Assembly (NCBI GenBank): GCA_963836075.1
Contig: CAWIIB010000009.1
Location: 2,880,001-2,944,000 of the forward strand
Origin: an uncultured Acidobacteriota bacterium
GTDB lineage: Bacteria; Acidobacteriota; JAQAZP01
Reading direction: 5' to 3'
Length of the DNA: 64,000 nt
The notes under the pieces are model-generated. The model was given only the letters and a program-made list of their open reading frames with translations. It did no database searches and was not told the DNA's origin. A program made the translations under genes and the position numbers. This document shows, one piece after another, positions 34,167-49,903 of the stretch (position 1 is the first letter of the stretch; every line of letters begins with the position of its first letter).

Positions 34167-34242
34167 CTTCGCACCGCCTTTCGTTCAGATGTCGTTCTGG
34201 CGCCACCGGGGGCGCCGCCTTTTTTATCCACCCCCCTTGCAG

Positions 34243-34489: not shown

Positions 34490-34510
34490 CAGTCTCGTTC
34501 GGGCTGGATG

Positions 34511-34762
34511 CTATTCGTCCATCGGTTCGAATTCCAGGCAGCCCTCTGCGTAGTCCTTGAGCAGGGTCTCGAGATTGTCGGTCATCCCCTCATCGGGGTC
34601 CACCTGGACGCATTCTTCCTCGTCCTCCCAGAAACCCTTCTTGCAATAGAGGTTAAGCAGGGCCAGAGCGTTGTTGCCGTTCTCCTGCTCCTGGAGTATC
34701 TTGCAGAACAGGCAGTTCATGCAGTTGATTTTACCGTTTCGGATGTGTGGAAATTTCTTCAT
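34511..34762 (-). CDS. Small Cys-rich acidic hypothetical protein (83 aa)
   Basis: AGGAG RBS, its own terminator, protein-like composition and CxxCxxC...C...C...C pattern. Confidence 0.7.
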   Translation of the reverse strand: MKKFPHIRNGKINCMNCLFCKILQEQENGNNALALLNLYCKKGFWEDEEECVQVDPDEGMTDNLETLLKDYAEGCLEFEPMDE

Positions 34763-35056
34763 CTGAATCAGCCACTCCTTACCAAACGAACATATCTCGA
34801 TCAATGGACATTCTACTCCAATCTTCTGCCGATTTCATTAAAAAAATTGACCTTAGGCACGATTTTTGGTGAGAATCTGAAGAATACTCCCCTCGAGGCT
34901 CCGGTAGAGGTGAAACTCTTCCAAACTCGTTGAATTGCGCTCTTTAGCCGGTTTCTGCTACCCTGATGATGAAACAGCCGTCCATACCTGGTCCACGGCT
35001 GCACAACAGCTCGGAGCGGTTCGGACTATTGCGATTTCTGCCATGGTGAGGTCCAC

Positions 35057-36076
35057 GTGAACGTGATTCTGGCCGGAGCGCTGTTCAAATGCGGGTTCAC
35101 CTTTCTGCTGGCCTTTGCCCTGGCCCTCTACCTGGTGCCCCGGTTGCGGGACGCCGCCATCCGGATGAACATCGTCGACACCCCGGACGGCAAACTGAAG
35201 ACCCAGCGCCGGCCGGTGCCCTACCTTGGCGGGCTGGGGGTCTACCTGGCCTTCCTGCTGGCCCTGGCGGTGACCTTTGAATTTGACCGGGAAGTGCTGG
35301 GTCTGATTCTGGCCGGGACCATCGTCCTGCTCCTCGGGCTGATCGACGATTTCCGGGCCCTGACCCCCGGGGTGAAGTTCATCGGCCAGATCCTGGCCGC
35401 CGGGGTGCTGATCAAGTGCGGCATCTACATCAAGCTGGTCTTTCTCCCGCTCTGGGCCTCGATACCCCTCACCGTGCTCTGGATCGTGGCAGTGACCAAC
35501 GCCTTCAACATCATCGATATCATGGACGGGCTCTCCGGCGGGGTGGCCTTCTGCGCCAGCATCCCGCTGGTGGTGGTGGCTTTTGTCAACGGGCGGATGA
35601 TGATCGCCATCGTCACCCTGGCCCTGGCCGGGGCGCTGCTCGGGTTCCTGCGCTTCAACTTCCATCCCTCGCAGATCTACCTCGGAGACACCGGCAGCAT
35701 GTTCATCGGGCTGATGATGGCCTCCCTGACCATGCTCGGCAGCTATACCGGGTCCAATGTGCTGGCCGCCCTCGGCCCGGGCATCATCCTCGGCGTCCCC
35801 CTGTTCGACATGCTTTTCGTGATGTATGTCCGGTGGCGGCGCGGTGTGCCGGTGATCCTGGGCAGCCCGGACCACTTCGCCCTGCGGCTGCGCCAGTGGC
35901 GGCTGTCCACCACCCAGACCGTGCTGGTCAGTTACCTGGCCACCCTGGTCTTCGGGGCCGTGGCCCTGGGCATGATGCTCCTGCCGCTGGAGCCGGCAGC
36001 CGTCCTGCTGGGCTGCCTGGTGCTGGTACTGCTGGCCGCGGCGCTGTTGCTCAAACGGATCGACATGAAACTGTGA
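35057..36076 (+). CDS. MraY/WecA-family undecaprenyl-phosphate GlcNAc-1-phosphate transferase (glycosyltransferase family 4)
   Basis: Polytopic membrane protein with P.LGG, GLIDD, NAFNIIDIMDGL, FNFHP..IYLGDTGS and DHF. Confidence 0.9.
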   Translation: MNVILAGALFKCGFTFLLAFALALYLVPRLRDAAIRMNIVDTPDGKLKTQRRPVPYLGGLGVYLAFLLALAVTFEFDREVLGLILAGTIVLLLGLIDDFRALTPGVKFIGQILAAGVLIKCGIYIKLVFLPLWASIPLTVLWIVAVTNAFNIIDIMDGLSGGVAFCASIPLVVVAFVNGRMMIAIVTLALAGALLGFLRFNFHPSQIYLGDTGSMFIGLMMASLTMLGSYTGSNVLAALGPGIILGVPLFDMLFVMYVRWRRGVPVILGSPDHFALRLRQWRLSTTQTVLVSYLATLVFGAVALGMMLLPLEPAAVLLGCLVLVLLAAALLLKRIDMKL

Positions 36077-36101: not shown

Positions 36102-36893
36102 ATGCTGACCACCATCGAGAAAATCGTCTTCTTGCAGAAAGCGCCGATTTTCGAGCAGATGACCAGCCGGCAGCTGAAGGTGCTCAGTGAAGTCACCGAG
36201 GAGGAGACCCTCGGTCCGGGCGAGGCGATCTTCGACGAGGGCAGCCATGGCGACCGGATGTACATCATCATCTCCGGCCGGGTGGAGATCCTCAAGTCGC
36301 TGGAGGAGAGCGGGGGCGGAGGGGCCACGGAGTCGCTGGCCATACTGGAGAAGCGCGAGATCTTCGGTGAGATGGCGATCCTCGACGACGAAACCCGTTC
36401 GGCCGCCGCGGTGGTCCGGGAGCCCACCCGCCTGCTCTCCATCCACAAGGACAACGTGCGGGAGCTGATTCACGACTACCCCGACATCGCCTTCGGCATT
36501 TTCAAGGTGCTCAGCAGCCGGATCCGCGAGGCCAACCGGCAGATCGAGCTGCTGCAGCGTGGCGACCAGCGCAAGGTGGTGATCACCGTGATCGACCCCC
36601 CGGACAGCCAGGCTTCCCACACCATGGTCACCTCGGCACTGGTGCTGGGCCGGCCCGAATCGTCCGAGATGCAGACCTACGACAAGTTCTCCATCCCCGA
36701 CCAGAGCCAGGAGATCTCCCGCCGCCACGCCGAGCTGGTTTTCGAGCGGGGCAAGCTGTTCCTGCGCGATCTGGAGAGCCTCAACGGCACCTGGGTGGGC
36801 GGCCGCCGCCTGGCCCGGGAACCGGCGCCCCTGGAGGACGGTTCCACCTTCCGCCTGGGCAGCCGCACCGAACTCCGTGTCAACTGGCGCTGA
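36102..36893 (+). CDS. Cyclic nucleotide-binding domain + FHA domain protein
   Basis: IFDEGS.GD.MYII.SG.V, FGEMAILD...RSA (cNMP); LGR...ISRRHA...DLESLNGTWV (FHA). Confidence 0.88.
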   Translation: MLTTIEKIVFLQKAPIFEQMTSRQLKVLSEVTEEETLGPGEAIFDEGSHGDRMYIIISGRVEILKSLEESGGGGATESLAILEKREIFGEMAILDDETRSAAAVVREPTRLLSIHKDNVRELIHDYPDIAFGIFKVLSSRIREANRQIELLQRGDQRKVVITVIDPPDSQASHTMVTSALVLGRPESSEMQTYDKFSIPDQSQEISRRHAELVFERGKLFLRDLESLNGTWVGGRRLAREPAPLEDGSTFRLGSRTELRVNWR

Positions 36894-36922
36894 CGCCTGT
36901 CCCCCATTGACGCCTGAGCGAA

Positions 36923-36952
36923 TTGACAGTTTTCCGGCCCAGGGGCTATACT
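36923..36952 (+). promoter_or_regulatory. Sigma70-type promoter of the GAK-type operon
   Basis: TTGACA-N18-TATACT. Confidence 0.6.
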
Positions 36953-37088
36953 TTTTCCACTTGCGCGAAACGATCAGAAGAGCAATTGGATACAGGTTTT
37001 TGACTTCTTCTTTTTCTCCAGCCCGCCCGGTTTCCGGTTCCCCGGCCGTATAGCGGAACCCGGCACCGGCGGGTTCAGGTGCCTGCTC

Positions 37089-38669
37089 TTGTCCGATCCT
37101 GACGATCTTGCAAAATTGTTGATCATCCAGGGGCGCAATATCCGCCTCCAGCAGGCCACCTGTCTCAACCGCCTGGTGGAGCCCGAGTACCCCGGGGCGC
37201 GCAAGGTGGAGGAGATGGACCGGGTGGTGGACCACCTGGCCCGGACCTTCGAGGACCGGTTCTTTTGCGCCCTGCTGGAGAGTGACTGCTCGGGCGATGA
37301 AACACGGCGCGACCGGTCGCTGCTCCACGTCTCCCGGCAGCTGGAGGACATCGGCGACCGGCTGGTGGAGCTGGCCCGGATCCGCCAGGACAACCGCATC
37401 CCCGTACTGGCCCCGGACGTCCTCGATCTGTGGCAGAACTCGATCAAGACGTTTACCGCGGCCCTGGAGGCCTTTTTCCAGGAAAGTATCCCCCTGGCCC
37501 GGGAGGCTTTCGAGATGGTGCTCAGCCTGGAGGACCTCTGCCAGGACCTGCTGCTGGGCTACCTGGACGGCGACAGTGATCGGGCCGGTCAGGAGTTCGG
37601 CAGCGAGGCGGCGGCCCGGGTGCTGGAAATCCAGTGCCTGCGTGGTGTGCTGCTGGCCCAGCTGCACATCGCCGAGAGCACCATCTACCGCGTCTCCGGC
37701 GAGCGCCTCAGTTTCAGCCAGTACATGCACCTCGAACGGCTGGCCAAGGAGGCCGGTGCGCGCACCGGCTGCTTCAGCTACAAGAACCTCTGGGGCGGGA
37801 TCAGCGGCGCGGTGGTGGGCAAACTCGACCTGGGCGAGAAAGGGCAGTGGGTCTTCAAGGACGGGATCACCAAGAAGATCCTCCCCGAGGTGGAGAACCT
37901 GAAGAAGTGGAACGAGGTGCTGGAAGGCGTGGTGCCCCGGCTGGTGGCGGTGGGCGGCGAAGGCGGGGAGACCCAGTCCTTCCTCTCCGAGTTCGTCGAC
38001 GGCGAACTGCTCTCCGACATCGTGCTCAATGGCACCTGGGAGGAGAAAGTCGAGGCCTTGCTTGCCCTGCACCGCACCCTGCGGCGGATCTGGGAGGCCA
38101 CCCTGCAGGAGCGGCCGCCGGAGATCAGCTATGTCCGGCAGATCCGCGACCGGCTGCCCTCGGTGTTCAACCAGCACCCCCGCCTGCGGATGATCCGCCG
38201 CTCCAGCAATCCCTCCGCCGCCTCGGTCGGCGAACTGCTGGACCGCGCCGGCGAGGCCGAACCCTCGCTGGTGCCGCCCTTCGCGGTAATGCTGCACGGT
38301 GATTTCAACGCCAACAACATCATGTTCAACCGCAAGACCGGCGAGGTGCGGTTCATCGACATCCACCGTTCGCAGCACGGCGACCTGGTGCAGGACCTGG
38401 GGGTCTTCCTTGTCTCCGGGGTGCGCAACCCGCTGGCCCGGATGACCGTGCTGGACGACCTGAAAAATATGAACAAGATGACCAAACGCTTCGCCAGGGA
38501 GTTTGCCCTGGCCCATGGCGATACGCAGTTCGACCAGCGGCTGACCCTCAGCCGTGCCCGGTCCTTCATCACTTCCAGCCGGCTGATCAGCGATTTCGGT
38601 TTTGCCAAGGAACTGTACCTGGAGGGCCTGTATTACCTAGATAAATTTGCCGAAAGGGTGAAGCCGTGA
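37089..38669 (+). CDS. PhoU-like domain + phosphotransferase (APH/kinase-like) fusion, GAK-system type
   Basis: N-terminal helical PhoU-like repeat (QLEDIGD). C-terminal kinase-like VFKDG..KK, LHGDFNANNI, FIDIHRS and QDLGVFLVS. Confidence 0.78.
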   Translation: MSDPDDLAKLLIIQGRNIRLQQATCLNRLVEPEYPGARKVEEMDRVVDHLARTFEDRFFCALLESDCSGDETRRDRSLLHVSRQLEDIGDRLVELARIRQDNRIPVLAPDVLDLWQNSIKTFTAALEAFFQESIPLAREAFEMVLSLEDLCQDLLLGYLDGDSDRAGQEFGSEAAARVLEIQCLRGVLLAQLHIAESTIYRVSGERLSFSQYMHLERLAKEAGARTGCFSYKNLWGGISGAVVGKLDLGEKGQWVFKDGITKKILPEVENLKKWNEVLEGVVPRLVAVGGEGGETQSFLSEFVDGELLSDIVLNGTWEEKVEALLALHRTLRRIWEATLQERPPEISYVRQIRDRLPSVFNQHPRLRMIRRSSNPSAASVGELLDRAGEAEPSLVPPFAVMLHGDFNANNIMFNRKTGEVRFIDIHRSQHGDLVQDLGVFLVSGVRNPLARMTVLDDLKNMNKMTKRFAREFALAHGDTQFDQRLTLSRARSFITSSRLISDFGFAKELYLEGLYYLDKFAERVKP

Positions 38670-39556
38670 AGATTGCCATTGCCGGTGTTATCGGAAAGTG
38701 GTCCACTGAACGACTGGCCGAATGTTTGCGCGCACGCGGCGCGGAGACCATGCTGTTCCAGGTCTGGGACTGCCTGCTGGATCTCGACGGCGGGACGGTC
38801 CGCTACCAGGGGAAGCCTGTTCAAGGCTTCGACGGAGTGGTGGTGAAGAAGATGGGTGAGTTGACCCACGAGAATTTCACCTACCGGTTGGGGGTGCTGC
38901 GCCAGCTGGAACGGAACGGGGCCCGCGTCTTTTCGCCCCCCGACCAGATCGCGGTGGTGGCCGACCGCCTGGAGGTGACCCGGACCCTGCGCTGGGCCGG
39001 CCTCCCCATGTCGCCCACGGTGGTCACCGAATCGGTGGACGAGGCCCTGGACGCGTTGTCCCGTTTCGGCAAGGGCGTGCTCAAGCCGATCTTCACCACC
39101 AAGGGGCGGGGCATGAAACTTCTGGATTCCGCAAACCGCGACGAAGCGGCGGCCGAGCTGGGCCGCTTCCGCGAAGCCGGCCTCGGGCCGTTCTACCTGC
39201 AGCAGTTCGTCGACGCCCGGGACGGACGGGACATCGGCATCTCGGTGCTCGACGGCAAAATCATCGGCACCTATTACCGCATCGCCGGGGAAGGTAACTG
39301 GATGACCACCATCCACTCCGGGGGCCGATACGAGGCCTGCGAATTGACACCTGAACTGGAAGAGATCGCCCTGCGCGCGGCCAATGCCTTCCGCCTCGAC
39401 TTCACCGGAGTGGACGTGGTGCAGGCGCCGGACGGCAGCCTGATGCTCTACGAGGTGAGCGCCTTTGGCGGCTTCAAGGGCTGCCGGGTGGCCCTCGACC
39501 TCGACGCGGCTGATCTCTACGCCGAATATATCGTCCGGACACTGGCGTCCGCCTGA
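38666..39556 (+). CDS. GAK-system ATP-grasp enzyme (RimK-like)
   Basis: WSTERLA, VVKKMG, KPIFTTKGRG, FYLQQFV, WMTTIHSGG.Y, FTGVDV and EVSAFGGF. Confidence 0.85.
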   Translation: MKIAIAGVIGKWSTERLAECLRARGAETMLFQVWDCLLDLDGGTVRYQGKPVQGFDGVVVKKMGELTHENFTYRLGVLRQLERNGARVFSPPDQIAVVADRLEVTRTLRWAGLPMSPTVVTESVDEALDALSRFGKGVLKPIFTTKGRGMKLLDSANRDEAAAELGRFREAGLGPFYLQQFVDARDGRDIGISVLDGKIIGTYYRIAGEGNWMTTIHSGGRYEACELTPELEEIALRAANAFRLDFTGVDVVQAPDGSLMLYEVSAFGGFKGCRVALDLDAADLYAEYIVRTLASA

Positions 39557-39570
39557 AGGAGAAGCGAATC

Positions 39571-40668
39571 ATGGGAACCATCCAACGGGTCCTCGAGGAA
39601 TACGATTCCGGGTTCAGCGCGGACCACCGGCTGCTGCTCGACCTGCACGGGGTGAAGATCCGGGTCAACACCGATTCGGACGAGGTGGCCGGGCTCCTGC
39701 GGGACTATTACGCCGACTACCTGGCGGCAGGCGGGCCGGAGGACGGAGGTGCAGACTGCTACCGCATCGACGCGCACCAGCGGTGGATCAAGGTCGACCA
39801 GGACGAACTGGCCATCTATGTGGAGCAGGGGAAGACCAAGCCCAAGGAAGCCTTCCTCGACGATCCCGATACGGGCCTGCGGTTGATGCTCAAGGTGCGC
39901 TCCGGGGTGCTGGCGCTGCTGGGCCGGCGGCACATCCGGGTCGCCGGCGACCTGGTGGGCTTCATCAACCAGCTGAACAACATCATCAATGCCGTGTTCA
40001 TCATCGACCGCATGGACGCGGGCTACACCCTGTTCCACGCCTCGGCCCTGGCCCGCGGCGACCGGGGGATGATCGTCAGCGGCCGCTCCGGAGCGGGCAA
40101 GAGCTCGGCGGCCATCTGGACCCTGGAGCACGGCATCTCGATCATCAGCAACGACCGGCTGCTGGCCCGGCGGGCCCCCGGGGAGGGGACCGGCGCCATC
40201 CCCATGCTCGGCGTGCCCAAGAAGCCGCGGATCAATCCCGGCACCATTGTCGGCAACCCCAAACTGCACGGGATGATGACGCCAGCGGAGCTGGCCCGCT
40301 ACCGGGCGATGCCGATGGAGGAACTGTGGCACGTCGAACACAAATACGACCTGCAGGTCAAGGCACTGTTCGGGCCGCAGGCCGAGCAGGCCACGGCCAT
40401 GCTTCACGCCGCCTTCTTTATCGACTGGGAAGTGGGTGGCGGTGACTACCACTGTGATCTGTTGCCCGGTGAGCGCTACCCCGAGTTCTACCGGGCGGTG
40501 TTCAAGGACGGCGGCGTGTTCGACCTGAACAATCGTGAGACGAGCCTTAAACCGGAGCACGAAGCGGAATATCAGCGGGTGCTTGAAGGCATCCCTGTCT
40601 ATCACGTGACCGGCGGTGTGTCCTTTGAATCGCTGGTGGAGAGCATTCTTCAGAGCGCCCGCGGGTAG
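39571..40668 (+). CDS. HprK-related kinase B (GAK-system type)
   Basis: KEAFLD, KVRSG, NQLNN.IN, HAS, Walker A GRSGAGKS, SNDRL, GVPKKPRINPGTI and LW..EHKYD. Confidence 0.82.
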   Translation: MGTIQRVLEEYDSGFSADHRLLLDLHGVKIRVNTDSDEVAGLLRDYYADYLAAGGPEDGGADCYRIDAHQRWIKVDQDELAIYVEQGKTKPKEAFLDDPDTGLRLMLKVRSGVLALLGRRHIRVAGDLVGFINQLNNIINAVFIIDRMDAGYTLFHASALARGDRGMIVSGRSGAGKSSAAIWTLEHGISIISNDRLLARRAPGEGTGAIPMLGVPKKPRINPGTIVGNPKLHGMMTPAELARYRAMPMEELWHVEHKYDLQVKALFGPQAEQATAMLHAAFFIDWEVGGGDYHCDLLPGERYPEFYRAVFKDGGVFDLNNRETSLKPEHEAEYQRVLEGIPVYHVTGGVSFESLVESILQSARG

Positions 40669-40715
40669 ACCCGTTCCGGCGTCAATACGAAACCTGTAAC
40701 GAGGGGGGGAAAGAG

Positions 40716-41459
40716 ATGAAGAAGAAGCTGTGGGATGACAGGATGTTGCCGCTGGGGTTGATCTGTCTGCTGGCCCTTTCCGCCGGCCCGGCCCTGGCCG
40801 GTGATTCGCCGGACTACCTGTACGCGGCGCGCAAGACCGTCGACCTCTACTCCATGCCCGCGGACACGGCCGATATCCTCACCTCGGTCCCCCTGGGCAC
40901 GATCATGCTGGAGATGGAAGAGTCGCCCACCGGCTGGGTCCAGGTCCAGACCATGGACAGTACCGTGGGCTGGGTGGAGGCGGTGGAGGTTTCCGACGAC
41001 GTTCCCACGCGCATCTTTGCCCAGCGTCCCACGGTGACGGTCCACTACTGTCCCACAATGGAATGCCCCGAGGTGGAGCGGGCCGGATTCGACACGGAGA
41101 TCATGCAGGTGGACGAGGACGACGACTGGGTCCAGGTGGTGATGCCCAACGGCGTGGTGGGCTGGGTCGATGAAGATTTCGTCTCCGAGAAACCGCCCAA
41201 GCGCTACGTGGTGATGGTGCCCAGCGCCAACCTGCGTTCGTGCAACAGCGAGGAGTGCCCGCTGATCACCACCGTCACCGCCGGGACAACGCTGATCCGG
41301 ATGGACAAGAGTGACGACTGGTACCAGGTGTGCACCACCAGCGGGGTCAGCGGCTGGATCTTCGAGGAACTGGTGCTCCGCGAGGACAAGGCGCAGCAGT
41401 TGCCGCCGTTGACGGTTCCGCCGGCCGGCAGCGCCGCGCCTGTGCCCACCGACGGATAA
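40716..41459 (+). CDS. Secreted protein with three SH3b-like domains
   Basis: Signal peptide; three repeats ending W.QV....G..GWV/I. Confidence 0.75.
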   Translation: MKKKLWDDRMLPLGLICLLALSAGPALAGDSPDYLYAARKTVDLYSMPADTADILTSVPLGTIMLEMEESPTGWVQVQTMDSTVGWVEAVEVSDDVPTRIFAQRPTVTVHYCPTMECPEVERAGFDTEIMQVDEDDDWVQVVMPNGVVGWVDEDFVSEKPPKRYVVMVPSANLRSCNSEECPLITTVTAGTTLIRMDKSDDWYQVCTTSGVSGWIFEELVLREDKAQQLPPLTVPPAGSAAPVPTDG

Positions 41460-41483
41460 CCACCAGCGGGCAGGGAGTGAACC

Positions 41484-42953
41484 ATGGCCAGGCTCATTAT
41501 CGTCAGCGGCCCCGGGGCGGGAACCGAGCACCTTCTCGAGGGCGGCAGGACCAGTATCGGCCGCGATCCGGCCAACACTATCGTGATCGGCGACAGTCTC
41601 GTGTCCAAGCGCCATGCCGAAATCATCCGCGACGAGGATGGCGGCTTGCGTATCGTTGACGTCGGTTCAAGCAACGGCACCCTGGTCAATGACCGGCAGG
41701 TGGTGGAGCACCGCTTGTCCCACAACGACGAGGTCCAGCTGGGCGAGAGCCTGCTGCGCTTCGAGAGTGAAGCGGCGCCGGCCGTTGACGATGGTGCGAA
41801 AACAGTCTTCATCGATGATGCGGCCACCCGCCTGTCGTTCCCCTCCGACGCCGTGGAGGCGGCCCGCTCCCCCCGGCCGCCCTCCGGCGGGGCGGAACCG
41901 GACAGCACCATCTACATCAGTGACGATGACGGGCCGGCCCAGGCCGCACCGTATCCGCCGGCGCCCGTTGCGGAGCCGGTCCCCAGGCTGCGGAAGAAAC
42001 AGACCAATCTGCCGGTGATGCCGATCCTGCTCGCCTTTATCGCGGTGATGATCATCATCGGCTGTCTGCTGACCTGGAAGGTGGTGCAGCGGACCCGCGG
42101 GGAACAGGCCCCAACGGCAGCGGAAACTGAAACGGCCGCGGTCCCGGACGGCGGCGGCAGCGCCGCGGAGGACGGTGCCGGCTCCGTACCGCCCACCCTG
42201 GTGGAGGAGGAGAACCTGATAGCCGAACCGCTGGAGTCCACCGCGCCGGTGCGGACGGCGCCGGCGCCGGTGACCGGATCGCGGACCGGACAGGCCGCGG
42301 CCCCGCCCCGGACCACTGCGCCGCAAACCGTTGCGCCGCCGCCGGCGACCTCACCGCCCCCGTCCACCCGGGCCCCCGCGCCGCCACCCGCCAGGACCTC
42401 TACACCGCCGCCCACGCGGACCTACACGCCGCCGGCCCGCCCCCGTGAAGTGCCGCCGTCCACCGGCAGCCCCGCCGGCACCGCGACCACGGGCACCGGC
42501 GGTCCGGCCACCGCCGCGACGGCGCCACCGGCCACCACGGCGGCCACGCCAAAGGAGGTGGTGCCCGACGCCACCCACGGAGTGCTGCACGTGATCACCA
42601 AGCCGGTGGGGGCCACCATCTACATCAACGAGGAACTGGTGGGGAAATCGAACACCAAGAAACGGATGTCGGCGGGAAAATACATCATCCGCCTGGAGCA
42701 CCAGGGGCAGTCGGTCACCGATGACGTGAAGGTCAAGGTTCAGCAGGTCAGCACCTTCTACCACGACTTTCTCCCTCCGCCGCCGGACGAGGACGAGGAC
42801 GAGGACGACAAGGACGACGACGACGAGGACGAGGACGAAGACGACGAGGACGAAGACGAGGATGACGAGGACGACGAGGACGAGGACGACGAGGATGACG
42901 AGAAGAAGAAAAAGAAGGGTTTCAAGAAGAGACTCAAGGACATTTTTGGTTAG
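41484..42953 (+). CDS. FHA domain + TM helix + Pro/Thr linker + PEGA domain protein with Asp/Glu-rich and basic tail
   Basis: IGR...VSKRHA...DVGSSNGT (FHA), TM ILLAFIAVMIIIGCLL and LHVITKPVGATIYIN (PEGA). Confidence 0.85.
   Translation: MARLIIVSGPGAGTEHLLEGGRTSIGRDPANTIVIGDSLVSKRHAEIIRDEDGGLRIVDVGSSNGTLVNDRQVVEHRLSHNDEVQLGESLLRFESEAAPAVDDGAKTVFIDDAATRLSFPSDAVEAARSPRPPSGGAEPDSTIYISDDDGPAQAAPYPPAPVAEPVPRLRKKQTNLPVMPILLAFIAVMIIIGCLLTWKVVQRTRGEQAPTAAETETAAVPDGGGSAAEDGAGSVPPTLVEEENLIAEPLESTAPVRTAPAPVTGSRTGQAAAPPRTTAPQTVAPPPATSPPPSTRAPAPPPARTSTPPPTRTYTPPARPREVPPSTGSPAGTATTGTGGPATAATAPPATTAATPKEVVPDATHGVLHVITKPVGATIYINEELVGKSNTKKRMSAGKYIIRLEHQGQSVTDDVKVKVQQVSTFYHDFLPPPPDEDEDEDDKDDDDEDEDEDDEDEDEDDEDDEDEDDEDDEKKKKKGFKKRLKDIFG
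42786..42902 (+). repeat. Low-complexity GAC/GAG tract encoding 39 residues, 38 of them Asp/Glu
   Basis: Read directly from the sequence. Confidence 0.9.
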
Positions 42954-43968
42954 GCGGTTGACGGTGTCCCTCACGGCCCCGGCCCTGATCCTCCTTGCGC
43001 TTTCGGCCTGCACCGGCTCTCGTGTCGCGGCGACGGTGGCCCTGCCGGCCGCTGCCGCTGCCGAGGGCCTCCACCAGCCGGCCCGGCTGCTTCCGGCGCT
43101 GGTGATCGAGCATCCCGACTTTTCCATCATCGACGGGGTCTGTGTCGGTCCCGGCGGCGAGATCTTCGTGTCGGACAAGGGCATCCATGCCATCTTTGTC
43201 TTTGATGATTCGGGACGGTTCCTGCGGCGGTTCGGCCGGCTGGGTGATGGTGAGGGGCAGCTGCACGAGCCCACCGGCATCGCCTTTGACCGGGACGGCC
43301 GCCTGGTGGTGGTGGACCAGGGCAACGGCCGGGTCCAGATCTTCAACACCGCGGGGCAGTTTGTCCTCGCCTTCGGCAACAAAGGCCGCAGGCCGGGGGA
43401 GTTCACCGAGCCCCAGGGGGTGGCCCTGGACGGCGAGGGGCGCATCCTGGTCACCGATGCCACGGCCAACCGGGTCCAGGTGTTCGACAGCCAGGGGCGC
43501 TACCTGCACGGTTTTGGTTCCTCAGGCAAGGGGGACGGCGAGTTTGACGAGCCGGAATCCATCACCGTGGACGCCCGTGGCCGGATCCTGGTGGCCGACG
43601 AGGGGAACCACCGGGTCCAGGTGTTCGACGCGGACGGGATTTACCAGTTCAGCTTCGGTGCTGTTGGCCAGGGGCCGGGCCACTTCGTCAAGGACGTGGA
43701 GGGACTGGCCCTGGATGGTGCCGGGCTGGTGTTCGCTCTCGACGAGAGGGGGGGCAAGATCGAAATCTTCGATGGCGAGGGCCGGTCCCGGGGCAGCTTC
43801 GGCGGCGGCCCGGGAGGGGAGCCGGGACAGTTCAACAGCCCCGATGGCATGACGCTCAATGAGGAACAGGGCCTGCTGCTGGTGGCCGACCAGGGCAACC
43901 GCCGGGTCCAGGTGTTCCGTCTGGACGAGATTCGCCGGGCGGTGAGCGGTGCGGCCGACGCCGGGTAA
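42946..43968 (+). CDS. NHL-repeat six-bladed beta-propeller protein, probable lipoprotein
   Basis: Repeated F..P.G(I/V)A.D..G.I.V.D.GNHRVQVF; lipobox-like LSAC. Start uncertain. Confidence 0.85.
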   Translation: MVRRLTVSLTAPALILLALSACTGSRVAATVALPAAAAAEGLHQPARLLPALVIEHPDFSIIDGVCVGPGGEIFVSDKGIHAIFVFDDSGRFLRRFGRLGDGEGQLHEPTGIAFDRDGRLVVVDQGNGRVQIFNTAGQFVLAFGNKGRRPGEFTEPQGVALDGEGRILVTDATANRVQVFDSQGRYLHGFGSSGKGDGEFDEPESITVDARGRILVADEGNHRVQVFDADGIYQFSFGAVGQGPGHFVKDVEGLALDGAGLVFALDERGGKIEIFDGEGRSRGSFGGGPGGEPGQFNSPDGMTLNEEQGLLLVADQGNRRVQVFRLDEIRRAVSGAADAG

Positions 43969-44004
43969 GCGGGTCGGGCCACCCACCGCGGAAAGGAAAT
44001 CAGG

Positions 44005-44586
44005 ATGTTCGCTCCACTGAACAGCACAAAACACCGGGCGCGTCTGGCCGCCTGCTGGACCCTGGTTCTGCTCTTCGTTCTGCTGGCGGGCAGCGGCTGC
44101 GGCGAGAGCAAACTGGATGAATACACCACCACGCTGCGCAAGGATTTCGACGCCGACGAGCGTGAAGAGGCAGCGGAGAAGCTGGGGAAGCTGGGTGACC
44201 CGGCCGCCATCCCCGCCCTCCGTGCCGCCACCCGGGACCCGGACGACAAGGTGCGGGAGGCCGCGGCCGAAGCCCTGGGGCTGCTGGCCGACCCTGCCTC
44301 CGGCACTGACCTGGTTGCCCTGCTGCGCGACCCGGAGAAGAAGGTGCGCCGCGAGGCGGTCAAGGCCCTGGGGCTGATCGGGGACCCCCAGCGGGTGGGT
44401 GACCTGCTGCCCATGCTGGGGGACCGGTCCAGCGACATCCGGGAGGAGACCGCCGAGGCCCTGGGCCGCATCGGCTCCCCGCTGGCCCTGCCGGCGCTGC
44501 AGCGCCTGGCCGCCGAAGACAGCGATGGGGACGTACGGCGGGTGGCCCAGTTCGCCGTGCGGCGCATCGAGGATCAGGCCCCGTAG
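44005..44586 (+). CDS. HEAT/PBS-lyase repeat lipoprotein
   Basis: Hydrophobic signal ending LAGSGC; repeated D...VR..AA.ALG..GD. Confidence 0.82.
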   Translation: MFAPLNSTKHRARLAACWTLVLLFVLLAGSGCGESKLDEYTTTLRKDFDADEREEAAEKLGKLGDPAAIPALRAATRDPDDKVREAAAEALGLLADPASGTDLVALLRDPEKKVRREAVKALGLIGDPQRVGDLLPMLGDRSSDIREETAEALGRIGSPLALPALQRLAAEDSDGDVRRVAQFAVRRIEDQAP

Positions 44587-44587
44587 C

Positions 44588-47500
44588 TCAGAGCACCTTC
44601 ACCGCCACGGCGGTGATGTCGTCGTGCTGCGGCGCTCCGGCGGCGAACCGCTGGACATCGCCGATCACCGCGTCGAGGATCTGCTTGGCGCTCATCCCGC
44701 CGGTGTCCATGCGCTCCAGCAGGCGCCGCAGGGCCCCGGTCTCGTAGAAGCGGCGTGAGGGGTCCTGGCTCTCCGGGATGCCGTCGGTGAGCAGCAGCAG
44801 GACGTCTCCGGCCTGGAGGTTGACGGTGCTCTCCTCGGTACTCCCCGTCGGGGAGGATGCCCAGCGGCAGTTTCGACCCCTCGGACTTCAGCGTCAGGAT
44901 CTCACCCCCCGAACGTTTGAGCAGCGGTTCCACCAGGCCGGCGTTGGTGAAGGTCAACACCCGTGAGGCCAGATCCAGACGGGCAAAGCAGAGCGCGGTG
45001 AAGGTGGAGCGCGAGGTCTTGTTGTATACCGGCAGGTTGGCCGCGGCCACCACCTCTGCCGCCGAGCGGTTGCGCCGTGCCTCGGCCTGGATCACGCCGG
45101 TGGTCAGCACGGCGGTGAGCGCCGCGTCCATCGATTTTCCGGCCACGTCGGCCACGGCGATACCGAGAGCGGTGTGATCGTCGTCGAGCCAGATGAAATC
45201 GTAGAAATCACCTCCCACCGTGTTGGCCGGGATACAGGTGCCGTCGATATCGTAGCCCGCGGTCTGCGGCGGGGCCTGGGGCAGGATGGACGCCTGGGTG
45301 TCGCGGGCGGTCTGCAGCTCGCTGCGCAGGCCCAGCACCCGCACCCGGTGGCGGTAGGCCGCGGTGACCGCGACGGCCATGGTCAGCGCCAGCAGCGCGA
45401 GGAACCAGCCCCGCTGCCAGAAGGGCGGGGTGACGGTGATGTCCAGCGACGCCTCCACTTCGCTCCACACCCCATCGTTGTTGGAGGCGCGGACCCGCAG
45501 GGTGTAGCGGCCCGGGTCGAGGTTGGTGTAGCTGGCGTGCCGCCGGGTGCCGGCGTCGTTCCACTCGTCGTCCAGCCCCTCCAGACGGTAGGTATACCGG
45601 TTTTTCTCCGGCTGGCGGAAGTTCAGCGCCGAGAACTGGACGTGGATGTCGTTGTAGCGATGGGGCAGGGTCACCGCGGCCCGGGAGGAGAGGGGCCGCT
45701 GGTTGGCCAGATCGAGGCCCGGCACCGTGATCCGGGTCAGCACCACCGGCGGCGTGCTGCGGTTTTCGGCGATCTCTTCCGGGTGGAAGCTGGTGTAGCC
45801 GTTGATCCCGCCGAAGAACATCTCTCCGTCGGGGCTCTTCCAGGCCGAGGCGGAGTTGAACTCGTTGCTCTGCAGGCCGTCGCTCATGTCGTAGTTGCGA
45901 ATCTCGAGAATTCCACCATCGCTGGAGTGCATGAAGCGGCAGATCCCATGGTTGGTGCTGATCCAGAAGCTGCCAACGTCGTCCTCCAGAATGGTGTAGA
46001 TCACGTTGTTCGGCAGCCCGTCCCGCACGTAGTAGCGCCGGCATTTGCCGGTGGCCGGGTCGAAACGGTTGAGCCCCAGGCCGGTGCCCAGCCAGAGGAT
46101 GCCGTCGGGCGTGGGGTGGATCGCCAGGATCCGGTCGTCGCTGACACTCTCCCGGTCCTGGGGGTCGTGTCGAAACCGGGTGAACGACCCGGTCGCCTCG
46201 TCGTAGCGGTTCAGCCCCCCGCCATTGGTTGCCACCCAGATGGTGCCGTCCCGGTCCTCGGCGATACAGTAGATGCCGTTGGAACTGAGGCTTGTCGGGT
46301 CGTCGTCGTCGCGCAGGAACCGGGTGAAGGTGCCCCTTTCGTGGTCCATCAGGTTCACCCCTCCGCCGCCGGTGCCGATCCAGAAACGGCCGCTCCGGTC
46401 CTCGTAGATGTACTGGACCACGTCGGAACTGATGCTGGCCGGGTCCTCGGGGTCGTGCTGGTAGTGAACGAAATCGTCGGTCTCCGGCCGGTAGCGGTCC
46501 AGCCCGTTGCCGGCGGTGCCGGCCCAGAGCGTGCCCTGGCTGTCCACCATGGCATACCAGACCGTGTTCAGGCTGAGGCTGCCTGGAACGTCCGGATCGA
46601 AGAGATGGCGGTGGTGCTTCCCGCTGCCGTCGACACGGGTCAGACCACCGTTGACCAGGCCGAGCCACAGGTTGCCCTCGGGGTCGCCGGTGATGGTGCG
46701 GACCACCAGGTGCTGGATGCTGTCCGGGTTTCCCTGGATGTGGGTGTGGTGGATGAACGGTTTCTTTTCCCGGTCGAAGATGTTCAACCCGGCCCCGTTG
46801 GTCCCGATCCAGATCAGCCCCGAGCGGTCCTCGATCATGGCCAGGATGAAATCGAGGCTCAGGCTGGCGGGATCCCCCGGAACGTAGGGGTAGTGGGACC
46901 AGGAAGCGTCCCCTTCTGCCAGGGTGCAGATCCCGGACAGCAGCGTCCCGACCCAGATCATCCCCCGGCTGTCGGTGAGCAAGGACGCGACGGGCTGCGT
47001 CGCCAGGTTTACGGCCTCTCCCGGGACGGAGGTCTGCCGGGTCACCCGGCCGGTGGCCGGGTCGATGCGGTTCAGACCCGCCCTGGTGCCGACCCAGATG
47101 TCACCGGACGGTCCTTCGCAGATGGCGAGCACAAAGGGGGAACTGAGCGTGGACGGATCCTCCGCAACGGAACCGTAGGTGGTTGCCGAGCCGCTGCGGG
47201 GATCGAGACGCGCCAGGCCGTTGTTGGTGCCGATCCACAGGTCGCCGCGGCTGTCCTCGAATATTTCTCGCACCGGGGCGGGTCTGCTGTCCGCCGTATC
47301 CCCGGATGCTTCCGAGTGATGGCTGAACGAATGGTCAGCGGGTTCGTAGCGGTCGAGGCCGGTCCTGGTGCCGGCCCAGATCCGGCCGGCGGAATCCCGG
47401 TGAACCGCCAGCACCACATCGTGGGACAGGCTCAGCGGGTCGCCGGCCGCGGCCCGGTGATGGGTGAAGCGGTCGGTGGAGCGGTCCAGACGGTCAAGCC

Positions 47501-47924
47501 CGGCCATGGTGGCCACCCAGATGCTCCCGTCCTCCCCCTCGCAGAGGCTGTTGACCATGTCGTGGCCCAGGGTTTCAGTGTCTTCCGGGTCGTGGCGGTA
47601 CACGGTGAAGGTGTAGCCGTCGTAGCGGTTGAGCCCGTCTTCGGTGCCGAACCAGAGGAACCCGACGCTGTCCTGGAGGATGCAGCGGACGCTGCTCTGG
47701 GAGAGGCCGTGTTCCACGGAAAGACGCTGAAAGCCCACCTCATTGGGCGTTACCGGCGTGCCCCCTTCCGCGGGGATGCCGAGCAGGGCGAGGATCAGGA
47801 ATCCTGTCACTGCGAGGAGCCGCAGGCGACAAAGCAACCTCCTCCGCACACCTGCCGCTGAAAGCGGATGGCTTCGGAGTGCCGCAAATGACAGCTGTTT
47901 CCACTCTGTTCCCTGTCGGTTCAT
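44588..47924 (-). CDS. Two-component-regulator propeller sensor (Reg_prop + Y_Y_Y) fused to SpoIIE/PP2C phosphatase; +1 frameshift at GGTAC 44837-44841
   Basis: About 14 D..G.IW.GT..GL repeats, YTYRLEG...ASYTNLDPG.Y, PPFW + TM, VGGDFYD and ADVAGK. Correction restores LLLTDGI...HDDITAV and a stop at 44588. Confidence 0.88.
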
Positions 47925-47992: not shown

Positions 47993-49903
47993 TTACTTGT
48001 TGCGGGCCTTGCGCAGGGTCTCCTCGGTGACCGCCACCACCTGGCGCATCTGCATCGGTTTGGCCAGCACCTTCTGCACGCCGGTGCCCTTGACCTTGGC
48101 CTCTTCCACCTGGGCCCCCCAGCCGGTCATTACGATCACCGGGATCGACTTGTCGGAAGCCTTGATCCTGCTGGCCACCTCCCAGCCCGAGATTCCGGGC
48201 ATGCCGAGATCGGTGAACACCAGATCGTACTGGTGCTTGTTGAACAGCGCCATGCCGTCGATGCCGTCAACCGCCACGTCCACCTGGTGGCCCACCGAGA
48301 GGAGGATCTCACTCACCACTTCGCGGATATACTTGTCGTCGTCGATGACCAGGATGCGGCCCTTGTTGCAGCTCTCCCCGGGTTCCTCCCGCGGCGCCTC
48401 GGCCTTGGGTTTGCCGTTGGCCACCGGCAGGTAGATGGTGAACGTCGATCCATGGCCCTGCTCGCTCTCCACCATGATCTCACCCTCGTGGCGCTCGATG
48501 ATTCCGCAGGAGATGCTCAGCCCCAGACCGCTGCCCCGTTTACCCTTGGTGGTGTAGAAGGGCTGGAAGACCTTTTCCCGCACGTCGGGCGGGATGCCGA
48601 CGCCGTCGTCGCTCACCGAAGCAAAGACCCGGCCGCCGTGCATCCCGGTGCGCACCCTGATGGTGCCGCTCTCGCGAATGGCATCCACGGCATTGAAGAT
48701 CAGGTTGGTCAGCACCTCGCGCAGTTCGTTGCCCCGTCCCAGCACGTGGCGGATGGTTCCGTAATCCTCCTGCACGCGGATCTCCACGTTGTCCACCTGG
48801 GCCTCGTCCTTCCAGCGGGACTTGGTGATGGCCAGGGTGTCGCGGACCAAGGTGTTGAGGTCCAGCAGCTCCACCTCACGCTCGCCGCTGATCCGGCTGA
48901 AGCGGAGGATACGGCTCACCGTGTCGGCCCCGTCCAGGGCGGCGCGCTCCACCACCCGCAGCCGTTTCTTGATCTCTTCCCATTCCTGGGGTTTCTTGTC
49001 GCCCCTGGTGATCAGCAGCTGGACGTGGCCGAGGATGGCGCTGAGCAGGTTGTTGAAGTCGTGGGCCACTCCGCAGGACATCTCGCCGAGGGTGTGCAGG
49101 TTGTTCATCTTCATCACCTGCATCTCCATCTCCTTCACGGCGGAGAGGTCGCGGATGCCGGCGGCGATGTAGCGGATCCGTTCCGGAGCCTTGCCCGGCC
49201 GGGGGGTGCGGCGGCCGGCGAAGGGCAGCAGCTTGAAGCTGACCTCGCAGGGGAAGCTGCGGCCGTCCCGGCGCTGGGCGGTGACGTCAGTGTAGGACAG
49301 CTCTTCACCCTCGGGCAGGGTCTTGATGCCTTCCAGCAGCTTGCCACCGTCCACGTCGGGAAAGATGTTCTGCAGGGTGGCGTTGACCAGGTTCTCCGGG
49401 TCGGCGCAGAGCATCTCCGCCGCCCGGTTGTTGGCCGCGGCCAGCAGACCGCTCTCGGCCCGGAAGAGCAGCAGCGGCTCCAGGGCCACCGCCACCAGGC
49501 CGGCGGGGTTGATCACCGCCCCATGCTGGTGCTGCTTGATGCGGGTCAGCGTGCCCTGGGAACAGACAAATTTCTGGTCCTTGCTGTAGACCCCGGTGCT
49601 CTGCAGGTCGAAGTGGAATTCGCTGCCGTTGCGGCTGTTCAGGGTCAGCGGGTAGCCGTGGGTGGCCCGTTTCCCGGTGCGCCGTTCGTTGAACATTCGG
49701 CCGGCCAGCGGGTTGCGGTTGATATCGACGATCCTCGAGTAGTGCTCACCCAGCAGCTCGTCCTGACTGTAGCCGAGCATGCGGCTCAGCTTCTCGTCGA
49801 GGTAGAGGATGCTGCCGGTGGGATTGACCACGTATGTGGTCTGCGGAAGTGAGAAGGCCGATGTACCGTCCGTAGCATTGCCGGCTGATTGTGCCCCGCG
49901 CAT
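47993..49903 (-). CDS. PAS-domain hybrid sensor histidine kinase/response regulator
   Basis: Two PAS-like regions, AHDFNN H-box, NAVDA, DDGVG, FYTTK, GSGLGL, REC (VIDDD, DLGMP, KP). Confidence 0.92.
   Translation of the reverse strand: MRGAQSAGNATDGTSAFSLPQTTYVVNPTGSILYLDEKLSRMLGYSQDELLGEHYSRIVDINRNPLAGRMFNERRTGKRATHGYPLTLNSRNGSEFHFDLQSTGVYSKDQKFVCSQGTLTRIKQHQHGAVINPAGLVAVALEPLLLFRAESGLLAAANNRAAEMLCADPENLVNATLQNIFPDVDGGKLLEGIKTLPEGEELSYTDVTAQRRDGRSFPCEVSFKLLPFAGRRTPRPGKAPERIRYIAAGIRDLSAVKEMEMQVMKMNNLHTLGEMSCGVAHDFNNLLSAILGHVQLLITRGDKKPQEWEEIKKRLRVVERAALDGADTVSRILRFSRISGEREVELLDLNTLVRDTLAITKSRWKDEAQVDNVEIRVQEDYGTIRHVLGRGNELREVLTNLIFNAVDAIRESGTIRVRTGMHGGRVFASVSDDGVGIPPDVREKVFQPFYTTKGKRGSGLGLSISCGIIERHEGEIMVESEQGHGSTFTIYLPVANGKPKAEAPREEPGESCNKGRILVIDDDKYIREVVSEILLSVGHQVDVAVDGIDGMALFNKHQYDLVFTDLGMPGISGWEVASRIKASDKSIPVIVMTGWGAQVEEAKVKGTGVQKVLAKPMQMRQVVAVTEETLRKARNK

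Follow-up and report, generated by a model that had tools for sequence, protein, structure and literature searches.

A GAK catalytic core with dispersed partners next to FHA and PP2C genes on the chromosome of an uncultured acidobacterium

Organization of the locus

The DNA analysed here, called the window, is a stretch of 64 kb (C9:2880001-2944000) from the 6.2-Mb, 10-contig, 94.7% complete genome of an uncultured acidobacterium. It contains three adjacent genes, encoding a kinase with PhoU and APH-fold parts (PhoU-APH), a RimK-family ATP-grasp ligase and an HprK-related kinase B (HprK-B), which resemble the GAK (Grasp/Amphipathic/Kinase) system. Around this trio lie genes for two proteins with FHA domains, which read phosphothreonine (pThr), for several envelope proteins and for a PP2C phosphatase. 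A first-pass annotation had interpreted the ensemble as a reduced GAK module within a candidate phospho-signalling system devoid of a Hanks kinase, in which the two atypical kinases could write, the FHA proteins read and the phosphatase erase. Its gene order and every domain call were verified by open reading frame (ORF) listing and by Pfam and NCBIfam scans, with all listed genes present at the positions given. The G+C content of the window is about 65%, and the context is ordinary chromosome, with mobile genes absent among the genes scanned. The features, with window coordinates, are as follows (TM, transmembrane segment; cNMP, cyclic nucleotide; aa, amino acids).

35057..36076, + strand: WecA/MraY-family polyprenyl-phosphate sugar-phosphate transferase (PF00953, 125 bits; NCBIfam WecA/MraY matches; 8 hydrophobic segments), given as context only
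36102..36893, + strand: cytoplasmic cNMP_binding and FHA protein (cNMP-FHA), 263 aa (PF00027, 69.7 bits; PF00498, 56.3 bits)
36923..36952, + strand: sigma-70-like promoter match, TTGACA-18-TATACT, 11/12, a consensus match only
37089..38669, + strand: PhoU-APH kinase, 526 aa, first gene of the trio (PF01636, 51.7 bits; PF01895, 36.9 bits)
38666..39556, + strand: RimK-family ATP-grasp ligase of GAK type, 296 aa (TIGR04356, 288.2 bits)
39571..40668, + strand: HprK-B, 365 aa (TIGR04355, 238.3 bits)
40716..41459, + strand: secreted protein with three SH3b domains (PF08239, 3 stretches) and a Sec signal (…ALA/G)
41484..42953, + strand: FHA-TM-PEGA bitopic membrane protein (PF00498, 69.4 bits; PF08308, 30.6 bits)
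42862..43968, + strand: NHL-repeat beta-propeller lipoprotein (PF01436, 5 stretches, 132 bits), lipobox LSAC, Cys at ORF codon 40
44005..44586, + strand: small HEAT-repeat protein (PF13646, 116.7 bits) with a signal peptide and a probable lipobox (…LLAGSGC)
44588..47924, - strand: Reg_prop/Y_Y_Y/TM/SpoIIE sensor PP2C (PF07494, PF07495, PF07228), frameshifted, long ORF 44574-47924
47993..49903, - strand: PAS hybrid histidine kinase/receiver (PF02518, PF00072, PAS, HisKA)

From PhoU-APH to HEAT, the genes are separated by -4 (the last 4 bases of PhoU-APH are also the first 4 of the ligase gene), 14, 47 and 24 bases, an overlap, and 36 bases. The overlap amounts to 92 bases between the NHL ORF and the FHA-PEGA gene, and the true NHL start is therefore placed later than 42862. 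The packing of this run is operon-like, and its genes are probably cotranscribed. The co-oriented run noted at first pass is confirmed, but the tight packing extends only from PhoU-APH to HEAT. The cNMP-FHA gene begins 25 bases after the sugar-phosphate transferase gene and is set off from PhoU-APH by 195 bases holding the sigma-70-like site, one of four consensus matches found in the region versus 1.7 expected. No remnant of an amphi-Trp gene, the usual GAK partner, was found in this gap, and an Rfam scan of the window returned zero matches.

Conservation of the trio

One genome per species was scanned with an alignment of HprK-B (A1), and at least 592 relatives were confirmed out of 595 pattern matches. 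The neighbourhood counts below rest on the best 80 of these loci. By tblastn with the window proteins, HprK-B was found in 80 of the 80, the ligase in 77 and PhoU-APH in 76, with PhoU-APH, ligase and HprK-B following one another in this order throughout; the four loci in which PhoU-APH is missing have <300 bases of upstream sequence before a contig end. PhoU-APH is therefore no less a part of the GAK core than the ligase and HprK-B, and the assignment of the three window genes to the GAK type stands. Two loci, L033 from a gammaproteobacterial bivalve symbiont and L054 from a gammaproteobacterial metagenome-assembled genome (MAG), truly lack the ligase, with PhoU-APH followed directly by HprK-B.

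The trio of the window is divergent, its proteins being about 33-44% identical to other GAK proteins. Close relatives of HprK-B are 81-99% identical and the next 36% or less, and within a phylum sample of 401 genomes HprK-B was found in three, each from the genus of the window. The full-text literature search returned no study on GAK, on HprK-related kinase B or on sets of RimK, HPr kinase and CofD. Although present in at least 592 species-level loci, the GAK set is thus widespread yet unstudied in the literature searched.

Sequence and fold of the three enzymes

In the family alignments, the catalytic residues of the trio enzymes are invariant. For PhoU-APH (alignment A5) these are K257, E267, H403-G-D405, N410 and D424, and the motifs HGDFNANN and IDIH are retained. 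Its APH match lies well over the cut-off (51.7 versus 23.2 bits), and the catalytic Lys, HxD…N and metal Asp of APH/eukaryotic-like kinases are all present. A PDB sequence search with PhoU-APH gave zero matches. The Foldseek neighbours of the kinase domain in its AlphaFold2 (AF2) model (pLDDT 88.6) are APH(3'), APH(4), choline kinase, MTR kinase and corramycin phosphotransferase, with E about 1e-7 and TM-scores of 0.5-0.66 on the target.

The ligase scores best with the GAK model TIGR04356 (288.2 bits versus a cut-off of 300), by a lead of 100 bits over MptN (185.9 bits), rimK_fam (140.3) and the RimK equivalog (94.5). Its position, conserved in 77 of the 80 loci, supports orthology to grasp_GAK. 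It is a full-length RimK-family protein with a pre-ATP-grasp domain (E 1.5e-29 to RimK structures), and RimK, LysX and ArgX are its nearest solved structures by profile. Unlike RimK, LysX, MptN and CofF, it falls below every equivalog cut-off, has no S6, LysW or cofactor context and is always paired with two kinases.

HprK-B, the sole gene of its kind in the genome, exceeds the cut-off of TIGR04355 (238.3 versus 200 bits) and has the P-loop GRSGAGKSS at 171-179. In structure comparison, the whole AF2 model (pLDDT 91.2; residues 1-365) superposes on ATP-PEPCK with Z 17.1 and a root mean square deviation (rmsd) of 4.2 over 301 residues, and the C-terminal half (151-365), which holds the P-loop kinase domain, superposes on HprK/P with Z 14.7 and rmsd 2.5 over 137 residues. 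Unlike that of HprK/P, its N-terminal domain resembles that of PEPCK. Sequence identity to either enzyme is 10-20%, and likeness to HprK/P in sequence is confined to the P-loop region. HprK-B does not qualify as HprK/P proper by Pfam Hpr_kinase_C (19.2 versus 33.3 bits) or TIGR00679 (16.8 versus 240). As modelled, HprK-B is a two-domain PEPCK-like kinase, beyond a lone HprK/P C-terminal domain, and both kinases of the trio are predicted to have small-molecule-kinase folds. Characterised enzymes of the HprK family phosphorylate serine.

GAK partners are dispersed in the genome

NCBIfam models of the GAK system are TIGR04354 (amphi-Trp), TIGR04355 (HprK_rel_B), TIGR04356 (grasp_GAK), TIGR04357 (CofD_rel_GAK) and TIGR04358 (XXXCH). 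The ORFs of the 80 loci were clustered, annotated and scanned with hidden Markov models (HMMs). The neighbours were amphi-Trp in 73 loci, CofD_rel_GAK in 62, a family-less 400-aa protein in 45, XXXCH in 33, metallophosphoesterase in 16, histidine phosphatase and SixA-NUDIX in 14 each, and NUDIX in 8. Among the 60 well-covered loci, with ≥1.5 kb upstream and ≥3 kb downstream of the trio, amphi-Trp was present in 59, the sole exception being the congener L015, and 56 carried a CofD-like gene or a phosphatase gene from this list. The definition of GAK is thereby sharpened to an invariant set of PhoU-APH, RimK-type ligase and PEPCK/HprK-like kinase, with amphi-Trp nearly always adjacent and a CofD-like or phosphatase/NUDIX set completing the unit.

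The window shares with other GAK loci an HprK_rel_B above cut-off, grasp_GAK as by far the best ligase model, albeit below its cut-off, and the gene order of 76 of the 80 loci. Unlike them, its 64 kb hold no amphi-Trp, CofD-like, 400-aa, XXXCH, phosphatase or NUDIX partner. Three amphi-Trp matches, and XXXCH, lie outside the window at two other loci:

Locus B, C9:631334-634631 (L100:5334-8631): His_Phos_1, 149-aa amphi-Trp, 94-aa amphi-Trp and a 547-aa PhoU-APH paralogue, in that order
Locus C, C1:787130-787646 (L101:6130-6646), - strand: 70-aa amphi-Trp piece and XXXCH, in adjacent frames

The phosphatase of locus B scores 323 bits with an HMM built from phosphatases of GAK loci, and its PhoU-APH is 33% identical to that of the window over 334 residues. 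Locus B is also present in congener G026. The 149-aa amphi-Trp protein has a Lys-rich N-terminus, ligase and HprK-B are absent from the locus, and an isocitrate lyase gene follows it. At locus C, XXXCH (C1:787130-787402) scores 67.2 bits. In G026, amphi-Trp and XXXCH are fused in one 193-aa frame, and the assembly of the window genome therefore probably has an indel at locus C; in congener G007, a contig ends just past the amphi-Trp part.

In a quick tree with long-branch warnings, for which a thorough search was unfinished, the clade of the window PhoU-APH has a stem of 2.16 changes per column. With the same warnings, the PhoU-APH of locus B groups with L065, L069, L079 and L085, which carry histidine phosphatase, metallophosphoesterase and two amphi-Trp genes upstream. 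This placement suggests that the two PhoU-APH paralogues are not recent duplicates.

TIGR04357 found no CofD-like gene in the 94.7% complete genome at E 0.1, nor did an HMM built for this analysis, and HMM searches of the genome for the 400-aa family-less protein and the metallophosphoesterase were likewise negative. The first-pass annotation was right that amphi-Trp and CofD-like partners are absent from the window, but amphi-Trp is encoded elsewhere in the genome. The GAK module is dispersed rather than reduced, and only the CofD-like partner was unfound. The genus of the window is the one case seen in which GAK enzymes and amphi-Trp are encoded apart, and it could show which parts need each other.

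A possible protein substrate for the trio

The adjacency of amphi-Trp raises the possibility that the trio modifies the amphi-Trp protein, much as HPr or LysW is modified. HprK-B would phosphorylate an N-terminal Ser, the ligase would add amino acids and PhoU-APH would regulate; here, the substrates would come from loci B and C, where the genome retains amphi-Trp genes. Amphi-Trp proteins of GAK loci (alignment A4) share an N-terminal F-x-H-E-S-x-Q-D with Ser12 conserved at ≥90% and an invariant Trp73, and the gene often directly precedes PhoU-APH. The HprK/P-like C-terminal domain of HprK-B and the kinship of the ligase with RimK, LysX and ArgX are consistent with such a role. In addition, lasso-peptide HPr-kinase homologues phosphorylate the C-terminal Ser of a peptide, according to PMC8498205.

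A conserved acidic C-terminus of RimK/LysX style, like that of S6 or LysW, was sought on the amphi-Trp proteins of A4 and not found, the C-termini being variable. CofD-like, NUDIX, histidine phosphatase and metallophosphoesterase accessories are characteristic of phosphoester chemistry on small molecules, HprK-B resembles PEPCK rather than HprK in its N-terminal domain, and locus B was not found in G007. Modification of amphi-Trp is on balance improbable, although it deserves to be taken seriously. A model of the complex of HprK-B, ligase and the 94-aa amphi-Trp protein of locus B scored 0.00 versus a mark of 0.32, which is no evidence either way.

Many second-copy amphi-Trp proteins in A4 bear long Lys/Ala/Pro-rich tails. 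In the literature searched, the name amphi-Trp turned up only in PMC13490349, where a proteome table lists such a protein as abundant.

A neighbourhood peculiar to one genus

The genes downstream of the trio are seen next to no GAK core outside the genus among the 80 loci, apart from one weak match. The SH3b and FHA-PEGA genes were found by tblastn in 2 of the 80 (L014, L015), NHL in 2 (L015 and a weak match in L085), and HEAT and PP2C in 1 each (L015). cNMP-FHA was found in 6, full-length in the two loci of the genus and as the cNMP part only in four from Myxococcota. Both L014 and L015 belong to the genus of the window; L015, from an Acidobacteriota MAG, is the nearest named relative. Within the genus the neighbours are conserved: synteny spans all 11.8 kb in G026 (82%) and also in G007, where it is split between two contigs (87% and 79%). 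Since the three species are all of one genus, however, the shared arrangement reflects shared ancestry, and a neighbourhood peculiar to one genus is not enough to establish a new signalling system.

Full-length relatives of FHA-PEGA were likewise confined to the genus of the window (3 of 401 phylum genomes at the strict threshold of 1e-22, a floor). The block of SH3, FHA-PEGA, NHL and HEAT without the trio was sought in other Acidobacteriota by way of FHA-PEGA, which gave only these genomes of the genus.

The FHA-PEGA protein has, by hydropathy and sequence, a cytoplasmic FHA domain, a TM at about 176-198, a Pro-rich linker, a periplasmic PEGA domain and a poly-D/E tail. The tail (window:42790-42953), periplasmic as well, is a stretch of some 45 Asp/Glu residues that ends in a Lys-rich tip.

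These genes would fit a genus that has re-purposed the trio for its envelope. The enzymes, with the sugar-phosphate transferase and the SH3b, PEGA, NHL and HEAT proteins, would modify or sense a wall or glycan precursor, and FHA-TM-PEGA would link this to the cytoplasm. The operon-like run, the loss of adjacent amphi-Trp and CofD-like genes and the envelope genes around the locus (GT4, SLT, a MurU/AmgK-like pair and amidases) are consistent with it, and the long PhoU-APH branch suggests altered constraints. The argument nevertheless rests solely on adjacency in one genus, places three cytoplasmic enzymes with four periplasmic partners, has no comparable link among the 78 other loci and draws on an unfinished tree search with unreliable long branches. 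Re-purposing for the envelope is therefore distinctly doubtful.

FHA proteins and Hanks kinases

Read from the sequence, both FHA domains retain the canonical G-R, S-x-x-H and N-G residues. In the cNMP-FHA protein the FGE…RSA cassette is intact, as are G-R, S-R-R-H and N-G-T of its FHA domain. With Pfam scores over cut-off and these binding residues, both domains are good candidates for pThr readers.

The cNMP-FHA query matches 140 of the 401 phylum genomes at 1e-15, many of them over the cNMP part only, and the same architecture is present in Acidobacteriota without GAK. Among 12 cNMP-FHA loci examined, four, of which three are kin, hold SpoIIE and/or more FHA genes within 10 kb, and none of the 12 has a Hanks kinase nearby. 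The FHA/cNMP/PP2C neighbourhood looks like a feature specific to part of the phylum. At L114:7263-14801 (G154), genes for an FHA-GAF-SpoIIE protein, a cNMP-FHA protein and an FHA-RDD membrane protein occur together with GAK absent, likewise in its kin L115 and L117 and in L118. From such loci it follows that FHA, cNMP and PP2C genes cluster in the phylum independently of GAK.

Of the 10 FHA matches in the genome, 8 are outside the window, and 5 of these have a Hanks kinase domain no more than 3 kb away. There are 33 Pkinase matches in the genome, 30 over cut-off, in about 29 genes. None is in the 64-kb window, the nearest lying about 180 kb from the FHA genes. The absence of Hanks kinases claimed at first pass thus holds in the window only, and in the genome about 29 are available to the FHA proteins. 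The reader role likewise survives in part: the binding residues are canonical, but the neighbours of the other FHA domains point to Hanks kinases as writers. Three Hanks domains are each split into two adjacent pieces (C8:5093-5873, C1:1723089-1723869 and C9:72055-72826), which suggests that indel errors are frequent in the assembly.

The PP2C phosphatase

The PP2C protein has an N-terminal TM, periplasmic Reg_prop propellers and Y_Y_Y, a TM at 838-858 and a cytoplasmic SpoIIE-type PP2C domain. The long ORF (44574-47924) covers positions 3-117 of the 192 of the SpoIIE profile only. A second frame covers positions 113-191 and ends …HDDITAVAVKVL with its stop at 44590-44588. After this correction, 1 base separates the stop from that of HEAT at 44586, as had been noted at first pass. 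Both SpoIIE parts lie in a single frame in congener L015, relative to which the window carries a surplus C near 44837-44838 (TACCGAGG versus TA-CGAGG in L015). A complete catalytic domain in one frame is therefore found in L015 but not in the window. Because three Hanks genes and the amphi-Trp/XXXCH gene are also split, the frameshift, although real in this sequence, is probably an assembly indel rather than the mark of a true pseudogene.

The PP2C gene is co-directional with, and 68 bases behind, the PAS hybrid histidine kinase gene on the minus strand, which is its likelier operon partner. The genome has about 12 other SpoIIE matches, and FHA-SpoIIE genes adjoin Hanks kinases at C9:706758-712106 and C1:2252965-2255963.

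The proposed system independent of Hanks kinases

The resemblance to Hanks/FHA/PP2C signalling lies in two canonical FHA domains and a SpoIIE-type phosphatase within 12 kb. Unlike such systems, the locus has no Hanks kinase within about 180 kb, the phosphatase is of periplasmic-sensor type behind a histidine kinase, and the linkage is that of one genus. In a system independent of Hanks kinases, as proposed at first pass, PhoU-APH and/or HprK-B would write, the FHA proteins read and PP2C erase, with the ATP-grasp ligase adding a second modification. The flanking of the trio by FHA domains, the place of FHA-TM-PEGA within a tightly packed run, the retention of the arrangement in three species and the distance to the nearest Hanks kinase are in its favour. 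Parts for cNMP together with FHA or Hanks domains also occur near GAK in Myxococcota and at L081, and the FHA-SpoIIE fusions in the phylum imply that SpoIIE-type phosphatases can work with FHA.

A check of whether FHA and PP2C genes co-occur with GAK cores was negative outside the genus. HMMs built from the domains of this genome detected FHA in the window, L014, L015 and L081, hence in 1 of 78 loci outside the genus, and SpoIIE in the window and L015, hence in 0 of 78; SH3, FHA-PEGA and HEAT were limited to L014 and L015. All three species come from a single genus, about 29 Hanks kinases could serve in trans, and the GAK-linked kinase of Myxococcota is itself a Hanks kinase. Both atypical kinases of the trio have small-molecule kinases as fold neighbours, and FHA needs pThr whereas the known enzymes of the HprK family make phosphoserine, so that their proposed role as protein writers is not borne out. 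Serine is also the residue given for the lasso-peptide homologues in PMC8498205. The role of PP2C as eraser of marks set by the trio fares no better: it is co-directional behind a histidine kinase, one among many SpoIIE genes and frameshifted in the assembly, and neither PP2C nor cNMP-FHA seems to share a transcription unit with the trio. The writer/reader/eraser interpretation free of Hanks kinases is weakly founded, and such a system is unlikely here. For the FHA/PP2C idea the outcome is mainly negative, and the recurrent cNMP/pThr neighbours remain as a small testable residue.

A more specific variant is very improbable. A GAK trio acquired horizontally and freed from amphi-Trp and CofD would be operon-wired to FHA-PEGA and the periplasmic SH3b, NHL and HEAT proteins, with a cNMP-gated FHA protein and a periplasmic-sensor PP2C on either side, and one of its kinases would write pThr for the FHA domains to read, giving a trans-envelope phospho-relay without Hanks kinases. 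If it were true, the occurrence next to GAK of cyclase, cNMP, FHA or Hanks genes, in Myxococcota and in one gammaproteobacterium, would point to a general link of GAK with cyclic nucleotides and pThr.

Interpretation of the locus

The favoured interpretation, with a probability of roughly 0.55, is a composite locus, in which the catalytic core of a dispersed GAK system and a genus-specific run into four envelope genes lie between separate FHA and PP2C units. The region 37089-40668 would be the core: an APH-fold kinase under PhoU regulation, an amino-acid ligase similar to RimK and MptN, and a P-loop kinase similar to PEPCK and HprK. The trio, a fixed unit across many phyla, would have been acquired by one acidobacterial genus and then have diverged strongly, its usual partners being scattered to loci B and C rather than lost, the CofD-like gene excepted. 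In this genus it would head a probably cotranscribed run into the 3xSH3b, FHA-TM-PEGA, NHL and HEAT genes. The cNMP-FHA gene (with the sugar-phosphate transferase) and the PP2C gene (behind the histidine kinase) would be separate transcription units.

In the composite locus, the trio may be an ATP-driven, PhoU-gated small-molecule module that acts on a phosphate-bearing metabolite by two phosphorylation steps and one ligation of an amino acid. Amphi-Trp proteins would serve as partners in trans, for binding or as carriers. The FHA proteins would read pThr written by Hanks kinases of the genome, and any coupling of the trio to FHA and PP2C would be a genus-specific addition rather than a property of GAK. 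Small-molecule chemistry, action of amphi-Trp in trans and cotranscription are inferred from the domain, fold and neighbourhood evidence above.

Several observations weigh against the composite interpretation. No published identification of the substrate of any GAK enzyme was found in the full-text literature searched, and the neighbourhood census covers the best 80 of at least 592 loci. The fold similarity of the modelled kinases leaves the substrate unfixed, and HprK-B in its C-terminal half is similar to a protein kinase, HprK/P; RimK and LysX, the nearest solved relatives of the ligase, modify protein C-termini. The near-constant adjacency of amphi-Trp (59 of 60) and its conserved Ser would fit a protein substrate, and locus B was not found in G007. 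Two of the 10 FHA domains of the genome fall within 6 kb around the trio, which would be rare under uniform scatter. In addition, four related loci of Myxococcota (L017, L021, L038 and L055) carry a cyclase and a Hanks-cNMP fusion after the CofD-like gene, and the gammaproteobacterial locus L081 has a cyclase-FHA fusion (L081:2830-3741) 7 kb upstream.

Other features of the window

The G+C content falls to 0.546 at window:34000-35000, where neither ORF 34508-34933 (+ strand) nor ORF 34511-34804 (- strand) matches Pfam. A hairpin resembling a terminator is found at window 34198-34217, and an Rfam search there was empty. At window:27486-29560, an NTP_transferase gene is followed by a gene for an APH-family kinase, near an SLT transglycosylase gene and a CYTH-domain gene; this is the pair that we take to be MurU/AmgK-like.

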